A stretch of DNA of 4,267 nt. Origin: Escherichia coli. GTDB taxonomy: Bacteria; Pseudomonadota; Gammaproteobacteria; Enterobacterales; Enterobacteriaceae. The notes beneath the pieces are model-generated. The model saw only the letters and a list, made by a program, of their open reading frames with translations. It was not told the DNA's origin and did not search any database. The position numbers and the translations under genes were made by a program. Location of the stretch: assembly GCF_003334385.1 (NCBI RefSeq), contig NZ_QOWN01000088.1, one strand, 5' to 3'. Of the stretch, positions 1,198-3,138 are shown one piece after another. Numbering within the stretch: position 1 is the first letter of the stretch; each line of letters begins with the position of its first letter.

Positions 1198-2159
1198 AGG
1201 ATAACACCGTGCCACTGAAATTGATTGCCCTGTTAGCGAACGGTGAATTTCACTCTGGCGAGCAGTTGGGTGAAACGCTGGGAATGAGCCGGGCGGCTAT
1301 TAATAAACACATTCAGACACTGCGTGACTGGGGCGTTGATGTCTTTACCGTTCCGGGTAAAGGATACAGCCTGCCTGAGCCTATCCAGTTACTTAATGCT
1401 AAACAGATATTGGGTCAGCTGGATGGCGGTAGTGTAGCCGTGCTGCCAGTGATTGACTCCACGAATCAGTACCTTCTTGATCGTATCGGAGAGCTTAAAT
1501 CGGGCGATGCTTGCATTGCAGAATACCAGCAGGCTGGCCGTGGTCGCCGGGGTCGGAAATGGTTTTCGCCTTTTGGCGCAAACTTATATTTGTCGATGTT
1601 CTGGCGTCTGGAACAAGGCCCGGCGGCGGCGATTGGTTTAAGTCTGGTTATCGGTATCGTGATGGCGGAAGTATTACGCAAGCTGGGTGCAGATAAAGTT
1701 CGTGTTAAATGGCCTAATGACCTCTATCTGCAGGATCGCAAGCTGGCAGGCATTCTTGTGGAGCTGACTGGCAAAACTGGCGATGCGGCGCAAATAGTCA
1801 TTGGAGCCGGGATCAACATGGCAATGCGCCGTGTTGAAGAGAGTGTCGTTAATCAGGGGTGGATCACGCTGCAGGAAGCGGGGATCAATCTCGATCGTAA
1901 TACGTTGGCGGCCATGCTAATACGTGAATTACGTGCTGCGTTGGAACTCTTCGAACAAGAAGGATTGGCACCTTATCTGTCGCGCTGGGAAAAGCTGGAT
2001 AATTTTATTAATCGCCCAGTGAAACTTATCATTGGTGATAAAGAAATATTTGGCATTTCACGCGGAATAGACAAACAGGGGGCTTTATTACTTGAGCAGG
2101 ATGGAATAATAAAACCCTGGATGGGCGGTGAAATATCCCTGCGTAGTGCAGAAAAATAA
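1194..2159 (+). CDS. birA: Bifunctional biotin-[acetyl-CoA-carboxylase] ligase and bio-operon repressor (BirA)
   Basis: 321-aa ORF. The N-terminus carries a helix-turn-helix ([26 protein letters not shown]) and the biotin-binding glycine-rich motif GRGRRGRKW is present (about nt 1536-1562). SD GGAGA at 1182-1186 lies 7 nt before the ATG. The start overlaps the murB stop in the sequence ATGA (1194-1197). Length matches E. coli BirA (321 aa). Confidence 0.96.
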
Positions 2160-2162
2160 GAA

Positions 2163-2182
2163 AGGGGAGTATTCGCTCCCCT
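2163..2182. terminator. Putative bidirectional intrinsic terminator shared by convergent birA and coaA
   Basis: Seen in sequence: 7-bp GC-rich stem AGGGGAG (2163-2169) / CTCCCCT (2176-2182) with loop TATTCG, sitting in the 28-bp gap between the birA stop (2157-2159) and the coaA stop (2188-2190). On the minus strand the hairpin is followed by a U-rich run (reverse complement of 2150-2162 = TTTCTTATTTTTC), so it is a good terminator for coaA. On the plus strand the tail GCAAATTATTTGCG is only moderately U-rich; a second small inverted repeat GCAAAT-T-ATTTGC (2183-2195) sits there. Confidence 0.6.
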
Positions 2183-2187
2183 GCAAA

Positions 2188-3138
2188 TTATTTGCGTAGT
2201 CTGACCTCTTCTACCGCATGATTAGCACTTTTCGTCAGGATTAAACTGGCGCGCTCACGAGTAGGTAGAATATTTTGCTTTAAGTTCAGCCAGTTGATCT
2301 CTTTCCACAATGTCATGGCAGTCTTAATCGCTTCTTCTTTAGTTAATTTCGCGTAGTTATGAAAATAGGAATCCGGGTCGGTAAAAGCCCCTTCGCGGAA
2401 TTTCAGAAAACGGTTGATATACCATGTCTGAAGTAAGTCTTCCGGTGCATCAACATATATCGAAAAATCGACAAAATCAGAAACAAATACATGATGTGGA
2501 TCGTGTGGATAATCCATCCCGCTCTGTAAGACATTTAACCCTTCAAGAATTAAAATATCAGGCTGAACAACCGTTTTATCTCCATCCGGGATCACATCAT
2601 AAATAAGATGTGAGTAAACAGGTGCTGTAACGTTTGGCACGCCGGATTTGAGATCGGAAACAAACTTCACCAGGCGATGCATATCATACGATTCCGGGAA
2701 GCCTTTCTTCTTCATCAGACCACGTTCTTTCAGAACCTGATTAGGGTGAAGGAAGCCATCTGTAGTGATCAGTTCAACACGACGATGTTCCGGCCAACGG
2801 CTTAATAGCGCCTGCAATACACGGGCGGTTGTACTTTTCCCCACCGCGACACTGCCAGCAATACTGATAATGTAAGGAATGCGTTGCCCGTTGGTACCAA
2901 GAAACTGTTCCAGAACTGCCTGACGGCGCAGATTCGAGCTTATATAGAAGTTCAGCAAACGTGACAAAGGTAAATAGATCTCGGCAACTTCTTCTAACGA
3001 GAGATCTTCATTAATACCTTTGAGACGGGCGATCTCATCTTCCGATAACGTCATAGGTACGGAATCACGCAGAGCTGCCCACTGGTTGCGGTCAAACTGT
3101 AGGTAAGGCGTCATTAACGTTTGCTCTTTTATACTCAT
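2188..3138 (-). CDS. coaA: Pantothenate kinase (type I PanK, CoaA), first step of coenzyme A biosynthesis
   Basis: Minus-strand ORF with stop TAA (complement of 2188-2190). I place the start at the ATG whose complement is 3136-3138 ([14 protein letters not shown]...), giving 316 aa, the length I recall for E. coli CoaA. The Walker-A P-loop GSVAVGKST is present. The six-frame track extends the frame 52 codons further upstream to 3294, but that extension is not part of the known protein. Confidence 0.92.

Follow-up and report, generated by a model that had tools for sequence, protein, structure and literature searches.

Three kinds of described system come close to the site at which the convergent genes birA and coaA of Escherichia coli end. 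The classical bidirectional Rho-independent terminator is a single GC-rich palindrome in a short convergent gap, with 3' ends flanking it on both strands. Ju, Li and Liu (2019) used SEnd-seq to define overlapping bidirectional terminators, hairpins around which convergent transcripts overlap by a few tens of nucleotides and which in one direction are unlike an intrinsic terminator. Finally, Dar and Sorek (2018) described Rho-dependent transcripts that end right after stable stem-loops without U-tracts. The birA/coaA site has the layout of the first kind, but the A-tract upstream of the hairpin on the coaA strand has been lost in Escherichia, so that the RNA of the birA strand carries no U-tract. 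It shares the short overlap and the one-sided appearance of the second kind; however, birA and coaA are weakly expressed, whereas RNA polymerase collision, the mechanism modelled for this class (Wang et al. 2022), is favoured by high expression. It resembles the third kind in that the birA mRNA ends just past a stable stem-loop lacking a U-tract; a bicyclomycin-sensitive region (score 3.58 over 800-nt windows) is reported within about 180 nt downstream of the birA end. Unlike that kind, the stem-loop protecting birA doubles as the intrinsic terminator of the convergent gene, and the Rho dependence of the birA transcript is putative. As a shared terminator the hairpin is ordinary and of a known kind, and published maps already contain the transcript ends at this site. 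We consider it probable that in E. coli both convergent mRNAs end at this one hairpin, which works differently on each strand.

The window, that is, the whole stretch of 4,267 nucleotides that was analysed, has the sequence of E. coli K-12 and contains the end of rrnB, murB, birA, coaA and the thrU operon. Genome coordinates (NC_000913.3) are obtained by adding 4171888 to the window position. The identities of birA and coaA, their convergent arrangement and the gap of 28 bp between them (2160-2187), all proposed in the initial annotation, were confirmed by the sequence, the open reading frames and the annotation of NC_000913.3. The stop codons are both TAA, at 2157-2159 (+) for birA and at 2190-2188 (-) for coaA, and a coaA open reading frame of 368 aa is a mechanical upstream extension of the annotated frame. 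The coordinates of all features are compiled in Table 1. A literature search on coaA, birA and terminator returned only a synteny paper, in which the two genes are mentioned as an insertion between rrnB and tufB (Brandis et al. 2019), and the TERMITe supplements contain no mention of coaA, birA or the coordinates of the site.

Table 1. Features at the 3' ends of birA and coaA, in positions of the window.
Feature	Window position	Strand	Genome position	Basis or remark
birA CDS, 321 aa, last gene of the murB-birA transcription unit	1194..2159	+		ORF and annotation b3973
coaA CDS, 316 aa, annotated start MSIKEQ	2188..3138	-		annotation b3974
Palindromic GC-rich hairpin AGGGGAG-tattcg-CTCCCCT, common to both transcripts	2163..2182	both		sequence, folding, covariation in 67 species
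U-rich coaA terminator tail UUCUUAUUUUUCUGC	2148..2162 (read 2162 down to 2148)	-		tail score 3.49, d score +3.0
U-poor birA-side tail GCAAAUUAUUUGCGU	2183..2197	+		tail score 0.23, d score -48.9
Mapped coaA mRNA 3' end	2156..2158	-	4174044-4174046	three independent published datasets
Mapped murB-birA mRNA 3' end	2184..2187	+	4174072-4174075	two published datasets
Secondary 3' terminus antisense to coaA	2402..2411 (~2406)	+	4174290-4174299	TRS
Secondary 3' terminus antisense to birA	2068..2078 (~2072)	-	4173956-4173966	TRS
Small inverted repeat GCAAAT-T-ATTTGC over the coaA stop codon	2183..2195	both		judged chance, not a functional part

The 7-bp GC stem within the convergent gap is present as it had been described. 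On the coaA strand it has five G-C pairs and a loop of 6 nt; in the plus-strand (birA) RNA an added U.G pair extends it to eight pairs and leaves a loop of 4 nt. Both RNA strands fold into a stable hairpin, with -13.2 kcal/mol on the birA strand versus -11.7 kcal/mol on the coaA strand, but only the coaA strand has a U-tract. With their mapped tails included, the RNAs reach z = -4.2 (birA strand) and -3.4 (coaA strand) against shuffles, and among the 22-nt folds in the window the hairpin ranks third on the plus strand and fourth on the minus strand. A generic terminator scan of the whole window showed no enrichment (3 found, against 4.0 +/- 2.3 in shuffles) and called the hairpin site on the minus strand only. 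The pattern by itself is therefore not sufficient, and the case for the significance of the element is built on its position, its conservation and the 3' ends in published maps. An Rfam scan of the whole window (E <= 1) returned four tRNAs and weak tRNA-like matches, none of them at 2150-2195. A repetitive extragenic palindrome (REP) was rejected since the 52-nt region is single-copy (median of 1 place per genome) and has no Rfam match. A protein-binding palindrome was likewise rejected on account of the single copy and of a covariation pattern typical of an RNA/DNA stem with a variable loop.

On the coaA strand the hairpin is a canonical Rho-independent terminator, its independence of factors being predicted from the anatomy and the mapped ends. 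The stem is followed by UUCUUAUUUUU, with T at seven of the nine positions beyond the GC core. As the initial annotation had noted, this U-tract runs into the 3' end of birA, where it overlaps the stop codon and the last three sense codons (319-321). Term-seq places the end of the transcript at 4174046 on the minus strand (Adams et al., where it appears twice in a table with separate tabs for the growth conditions), SMRT-Cappable-seq gives a coaA unit of 4175107-4174045, and TRS reports termini at 4174044 and 4174045. These ends lie 5-7 nt beyond the stem, inside the U-tract, and fall in the stop codon or the last sense codon of birA.

On the birA strand, no U-rich tract follows the stem directly: the K-12 tail GCAAAUUAUUUG has T at only three of the nine positions after the GC core, and its tail score and classical d score are far below those of the coaA strand (Table 1). 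Transcript ends are nevertheless mapped here, 2-5 nt past the stem and 1-4 nt short of the coaA stop codon. SMRT-Cappable-seq gives a murB-birA unit of 4172033-4174072, and TRS has a terminus at 4174070-4174080 (+) with its peak at 4174075, labelled 'birA Primary'; the birA-side end is not among the matches listed in the annotated TRS sheet. The plus-strand ends are fuzzy in the SMRT-Cappable-seq data: 32 reads stop at the termination site itself, 56 end in the 50 bp beyond it and 18 read through. In appearance the birA end is either one protected by a stem-loop or a weak site of termination, and the read-through downstream of it is Rho-sensitive.

Taken together, 3' ends on both strands are found at the hairpin in the published maps. 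One hairpin lies between the convergent stop codons, the two mapped 3' ends flank it and the RNAs overlap. The claim that a single hairpin terminates both genes holds to this extent; it does not hold in the sense of an equal terminator in both directions in E. coli. A symmetric bidirectional intrinsic terminator, in which one Rho-independent mechanism ends birA and coaA about equally well, was the reading of the initial annotation, and we regard it as unlikely. It would explain why mapped ends lie directly past the stem on both strands, it agrees with the higher stability of the plus-strand hairpin, and it has a counterpart in most other Enterobacteriaceae, which carry A- and T-tracts on both sides. 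Against it stand the poor birA-side tail of K-12, a consensus scan that calls the minus strand only, a list of dominant Term-seq ends that contains the coaA end and lacks the birA-side end (Adams et al.), and the plus-strand reads, which are more numerous in the 50 bp downstream than at the termination site itself.

From the mapped ends it follows that the murB-birA and coaA mRNAs overlap by about 27-32 nt. Since the coaA mRNA stops at the end of birA and the birA mRNA does not reach the stop codon of coaA, what the two stably share is essentially the hairpin alone. This architecture, with a convergent pair, a short 3' overlap, a hairpin inside it and one side unlike an intrinsic terminator, also fits the collision model of bidirectional termination (Ju et al. 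2019; Wang et al. 2022). Under that model the hairpin would pause polymerases coming from either side, and head-on collision together with a push from the trailing polymerase would release the transcripts, which would account for termination on the birA strand without a U-tract. However, according to Wang et al. (2022) collision is most effective where expression is high and trailing polymerases are present, and both genes here are weakly expressed: TRS coverage is about 0.2-0.5, versus about 20 for tufB, and the transcription start sites of the two units have 170 and 56 SMRT-Cappable-seq reads. We consider collision quite improbable at this site.

We further analyzed the conservation of the site in Enterobacteriaceae. 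The gene birA is convergent to coaA in 67 of 80 species, with a gap of 23-47 bp in 66 of them and of 65 bp in one; in the remaining 13 species, of Enterobacter, Leclercia, Lelliottia and Silvania, coaA lies opposite another gene and has a different terminator. For covariation, 66 of the 67 convergent species were aligned with K-12. As a result, 90.9% of the alignment cells are paired, and 34 cells carry double-sided compensatory changes, spread over five of the eight pairs. None of 500 shuffles reached this compensatory count, and slid controls were 47-73% paired. The covariation indicates that the hairpin has been maintained by selection.

In most species the tails are T-rich on both strands, e.g. 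TAAAAAAGGGGAGCTATGCTCCCCTTTTTTA, and 41 of the 66 have T at seven or eight of the nine positions after the GC core on the birA side. The count is three of nine in K-12, in E. albertii and in one other Escherichia, and Escherichia alleles range from three to five. A symmetric A-tract/T-tract is thus present in most other genera and absent from K-12 and the other Escherichia alleles, where the birA-side tail has decayed to UGCAAAUUA (3/9 U), so that the element is canonical only for coaA. The ancestral form appears to be a symmetric A-tract/hairpin/T-tract bidirectional intrinsic terminator, which most Enterobacteriaceae have kept and whose A-tract was lost in Escherichia.

Read-through is Rho-sensitive on both strands and rises with bicyclomycin (Adams et al.). 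On the plus strand the sensitive region is at window position 2361 (genome 4174249; Rho score 3.58, p = 1.3e-7) and on the minus strand at 1904 (genome 4173792; Rho score 4.11, p = 1.2e-8); these scores span 800-nt windows and need not stem from transcripts that started at the murB promoter, and internal antisense promoters could contribute to them. Secondary termini lie downstream on each strand. The one antisense to birA lies at the foot of an A/U-rich stem-loop whose 13-bp stem pairs 2080-2092 with 2105-2117 (fold z = -3.0), and around the one antisense to coaA, near 2406, folding gave no structure above chance (z = +0.19). Moreover, the plus-strand RNA of 2200-2400 is only marginally C-rich (GC skew -0.02 to -0.08), so that a rut site there is not obvious. 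These downstream regions and termini are also what one would expect if the hairpin were mainly a 3' stabiliser, i.e. a barrier to exonucleases for both mRNAs, and real termination were Rho-dependent further downstream on both strands, a general phenomenon in Dar and Sorek (2018). We find this very unlikely, because the coaA strand has a canonical U-tract with its 3' end 5-7 nt past the stem, and because the genera have conserved T-tracts on either side of the stem, which intrinsic termination needs and an exonuclease barrier does not.

The asymmetric working of the hairpin, which we favour, may proceed as follows. On the coaA strand, RNA polymerase would transcribe the stem and then the U-tract and release the transcript within a few nucleotides of the stem. 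On the birA strand, GCAAAUUA comes after the slightly more stable hairpin, and little canonical release is to be expected. The murB-birA ends would then most likely arise in two ways: some polymerases would pause or terminate, inefficiently, at the hairpin, and others would read through until Rho stops them within antisense coaA, after which 3'-5' exonucleases would trim the RNA back to the hairpin. Translation may also play a part. A ribosome almost fully represses a terminator located a few bp after the stop codon, and the terminator becomes fully efficient only at distances above about 30 bp (Li et al. 2015). As the stop codons of birA and coaA are 3 and 5 nt from the stem, respectively, a terminating ribosome should occlude the hairpin under tight coupling of translation and transcription. 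With such occlusion, some transcription would leak past the hairpin on either strand, and Rho would serve as a back-up further downstream.

The overlap and the read-through bear on the suggestion in the initial annotation that tight packing may lead to transcriptional interference or antisense overlap. The 3' overlap and read-through on both strands exist; nothing supports regulation of either gene. A mutual read-through that tunes the expression of birA and coaA would draw on the increase with bicyclomycin and on the leaky termination predicted from the spacing between stops and hairpin. On the other hand, the sources found document no effect on expression and the levels are low, Rho ends the antisense RNA after some 100-250 nt, and the pairing is not obligatory, as coaA faces a different gene in 13 species. 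Such tuning is accordingly highly improbable in our view. It is more speculative still, and only barely conceivable, that the birA-side U-tract was lost adaptively in Escherichia, with reciprocal antisense read-through, set by ribosome occlusion and Rho, coupling biotin ligase and pantothenate kinase in their expression; acetyl-CoA carboxylase and fatty-acid synthesis receive cofactor and substrate through these two enzymes.

Beyond annotation, in which the coaA terminator is placed at 2156-2158 (-) and the murB-birA end at 2184-2187 (+), the site matters little in itself. As a worked example it illustrates that 3' ends flanking a hairpin on both strands need not mean a symmetric terminator, that orthologous terminators can, within one genus, drift from a bidirectional-intrinsic to a one-sided form, and that termination is predicted to be leaky, backed up by Rho, where stop codons lie 3-5 nt from the stem of a terminator.

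The second inverted repeat reported in the initial annotation does exist and covers the coaA stop codon. It was rejected as a second hairpin or regulatory element: its energy is weak (-1.4 kcal/mol), and many alleles from other E. coli and Escherichia lack an intact copy of it. Chance alone should give about ten perfect 6+6 inverted repeats in a window of this size and 20 were found, and we take this one to be a product of chance or a by-product of coding sequence.

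Published 3'-end datasets place RNA ends at the hairpin on both strands (plus 2184–2187, minus 2156–2158), and therefore the coaA and birA mRNAs both end there and overlap by about 27–32 nt, which bears out the antisense overlap raised in the initial annotation, where 3'-end mapping of both strands had been proposed. In Term-seq data (Adams et al. 2021, PMC7815308), the dominant minus-strand 3' end is 4174046 (window 2158), five nt past the stem; its class there is 'primary coaA, antisense birA', it appears twice in a file with one tab per growth condition, and its sequence context agrees with the window. 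This dominant list holds no plus-strand end at the hairpin. Full-length transcription units listed from SMRT-Cappable-seq (Yan et al. 2018, PMC6131387) end there in both directions: for murB-birA, 170 reads start at the TSS, 32 end at the site, 18 pass through and 56 end within 50 bp downstream, the respective counts for coaA being 56, 17, 11 and 11. Moreover, a published transcript-terminus study (TRS, PMC10687069) gives primary ends at minus 4174044/45 (window 2156–2157) for coaA and plus 4174075 (window 2187) for birA. The coaA mRNA thus extends only to the birA stop codon or the last birA sense codon, while that of birA ends 1–4 nt before the coaA stop codon. These 3' ends are already known from at least three public datasets. 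For regulatory antisense action or for transcriptional interference between the two genes, the latter also suggested at first, we found no supporting evidence.

A 601-nt query around the hairpin matches E. coli K-12 MG1655 at 100% identity, and the same region is found in 5421 of 5426 complete E. coli genomes; genome coordinates (NC_000913.3) equal window coordinates plus 4171888. The annotation there comprises murB, birA, coaA (opposite strand), thrU-tyrU-glyT-thrT and tufB. ARAGORN and Rfam recover the four tRNAs and give no match at the hairpin coordinates. The murB and birA reading frames share 4 nt (ATGA, 1194–1197), consistent with co-transcription from the TSS at 4172033 (window 145) and translational coupling. 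A mechanical ORF listing adds 52 codons upstream of coaA, to a TTG at 3294 (minus strand, 3139–3294); the mapped coaA TSS at 4175107 (window 3219) falls within this extension, and therefore the annotated ATG at 3138 is the plausible start.

Features of the window and mapped transcription units
Feature	Window position	Strand	Details
rrnB-region hairpin GGCGGGCAGGACGCCCGCC	1–22		very stable
rrnB-region hairpin GGCCATCCTGACGGATGGCC, then TTTTT	50–71		very stable
A/U-rich inverted repeat in birA CDS	2080–2092 paired with 2105–2117 (region 2072–2123)	-	13 bp, fold z = -3.0
birA stop TAA	2157–2159	+	sequence/ORFs
Hairpin AGGGGAG/tattcg/CTCCCCT	2163–2182	both	sequence
coaA stop TAA	2190–2188	-	sequence/ORFs
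tyrU-glyT spacer	3669–3784		116 nt
murB-birA unit, 4172033–4174072	3' end 2184	forward	SMRT-Cappable-seq (PMC6131387)
coaA unit, 4175107–4174045	3' end 2157	reverse	SMRT-Cappable-seq (PMC6131387)

The single hairpin is present, as first described, in the 28-bp stop-to-stop gap. Folding of the two RNA strands, the other comparison initially proposed, gave -13.2 kcal/mol for the birA strand, where one more U.G pair narrows the loop to 4 nt, against -11.7 kcal/mol for the coaA strand, whose 7-bp stem carries a 6-nt loop. Relative to shuffles, z is -4.2 (birA strand) and -3.4 (coaA strand) for RNAs with their mapped tails, and -2.6 and -3.3 for the 66-nt contexts. Among all 22-nt folds in the window the hairpin ranks 3rd and 4th in stability on the two strands, behind the rrnB terminator-region hairpins (both strands) and a tyrU-glyT spacer hairpin (minus strand). 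A simple terminator scan calls the site on the minus strand only; terminator-like sites in the whole window are not enriched (3 versus 4.0 +/- 2.3 in shuffles).

The strands differ in their tails. The d'Aubenton-Carafa-type scores, indicative only since they were computed with ViennaRNA energies, are +3.0 for the coaA strand (tail score 3.49) and -48.9 for the birA strand (tail score 0.23). Shared or bidirectional terminators of convergent genes are a long-known class, into which this element falls; by the definition of an intrinsic terminator, the U-tract is missing on the birA strand only, and the element is therefore filed as serving coaA as a canonical intrinsic terminator and the murB-birA mRNA as its 3' stem-loop. 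The claim that one hairpin terminates both genes is borne out in part: it marks both mRNA ends, but in E. coli its two directions are not equivalent.

On the birA strand, a stable stem-loop without a U-tract is directly followed by the RNA end, with Rho-sensitive transcription just downstream. This anatomy resembles that of the Rho-dependent transcripts of Dar and Sorek (2018), in which such stem-loop ends are shielded from PNPase and RNase II. DirectRNA-seq with versus without bicyclomycin (Adams et al. file 2, PMC7815308) locates one Rho-sensitive region antisense to coaA, at 4174249 (+; score 3.58, p = 1.3e-7), and another antisense to birA, at 4173792 (-; score 4.11, p = 1.2e-8). We suggest that termination of coaA at the hairpin would be canonical and intrinsic. 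For murB-birA the hairpin would cause at best weak termination or pausing; read-through RNA would be ended by Rho inside antisense coaA, and 3' exonucleases would then halt at the hairpin. The birA-antisense RNA is rich in C (plus-strand GC skew +0.16 to +0.30), the coaA-antisense RNA over 2200–2400 only marginally so. TRS secondary termini lie at plus 4174294 (window 2406), where folds compared with shuffles reveal no notable structure, and at minus 4173960 (window 2072; both PMC10687069), the base of the A/U-rich stem-loop within birA; coaA read-through RNA probably ends at, or is trimmed to, this point.

The stem lies 3 nt from the birA and 5 nt from the coaA stop codon. According to Li et al. 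(2015), a terminator this close is almost fully repressed, its hairpin being covered by the terminating ribosome, and reaches maximum efficiency only beyond ~30 bp. Similar masking here may make termination leaky, which would account for the substantial read-through counts on both strands. Polymerase collision (Ju et al. 2019; Wang et al. 2022) is a possible contributor to termination, though the low expression of the two genes speaks against it.

We scanned one genome per species, giving 80 Enterobacteriaceae loci with CoaA identity of 90–100%. At 67 of these, birA and coaA converge across gaps of 23–47 bp, except for one gap of 65 bp, and nearly all short gaps have just one GGG(G)AGC...GCTCCC(C) hairpin. 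Standard pairs fill 90.9% of alignment cells in the 8-pair helix (47–73% in slid controls). Double-sided changes affect five pairs (34 cells; two positions, for instance, go from A-U to G-C), a level reached by 0 of 500 shuffles; wobble-type departures take both orientations, 13 as G.U on the coaA strand and 22 as A.C, that is, G.U on the birA strand. The number of T in the 9 nt after the GC core averages 6.2 (coaA side) and 6.6 (birA side); the birA-side count is 7–8 in 41 of 66 species, only 3 in K-12, E. albertii and another Escherichia, and 5 in the remaining Escherichia alleles. These T-rich tails on both sides argue that a symmetric bidirectional intrinsic terminator is the ancestral and prevailing state, the Escherichia version being one-sided. 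Both stop codons are often embedded in the A/T tracts of the symmetric forms, e.g. TAAAAAAGGGGGCTCGCCCCCTTTTTTTA. In 13 species of Enterobacter, Leclercia, Lelliottia and Silvania, and likewise in one Tenebrionibacter, coaA is not followed by birA. The gene convergent to coaA in those 13 species is a different one, and the terminator between them, AAAAAAACCGGCG...CGCCGGTTTTTTT, also differs and is perfectly symmetric; in loci L035, L048, L051, L056, L059, L061, L063–L065, L070, L078 and L080 of this group it reads AAAAAAACCGGCGAT...ATCGCCGGTTTTTTT, about 20–50 nt downstream of coaA.

Within E. coli, the K-12 allele (GAG-TATTCG-CTC, loop 2170–2175) occurs in 2381 of 5426 complete genomes (44%). 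A GAGC-ATTA-GCTC allele (8-bp stem, 4-nt loop) is carried by all six other E. coli sampled, out of about 3,000 genomes without the K-12 allele, and by three of four other Escherichia species; its birA-side tails are as poor as that of K-12, and the K-12 hairpin is the less stable on the coaA strand. In E. coli FDAARGOS_1281 (locus L086:41-106) the last birA codon is TAA in place of AAA (GCG GAA TAA TAA), the annotated BirA lacks one residue, and the U-tract of coaA differs as well.

The second inverted repeat (2183–2195), noted initially, exists but is trivial: its fold has -1.4 kcal/mol, about 10 perfect 6+6 repeats are expected per window by chance, and many E. coli alleles (with GAAAAT... 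or ...TTTAC), as well as other Escherichia species, have it disrupted.

The window begins inside the rrnB terminator region (1–77), where the second hairpin presumably corresponds to rrnB T2, which it resembles. Just before the window starts, a Term-seq end (4171800) falls within the classic rrnB T1 sequence; a TRS plus-strand 3' end is at 4171965 (window 77; PMC10687069). The whole tyrU-glyT spacer folds no better than shuffles (z = -0.74); within it are a hairpin at 3672–3694, stable whichever strand is folded (-11.4 and -15.0 kcal/mol), and, on the minus strand, a terminator-like site at 3740–3728.
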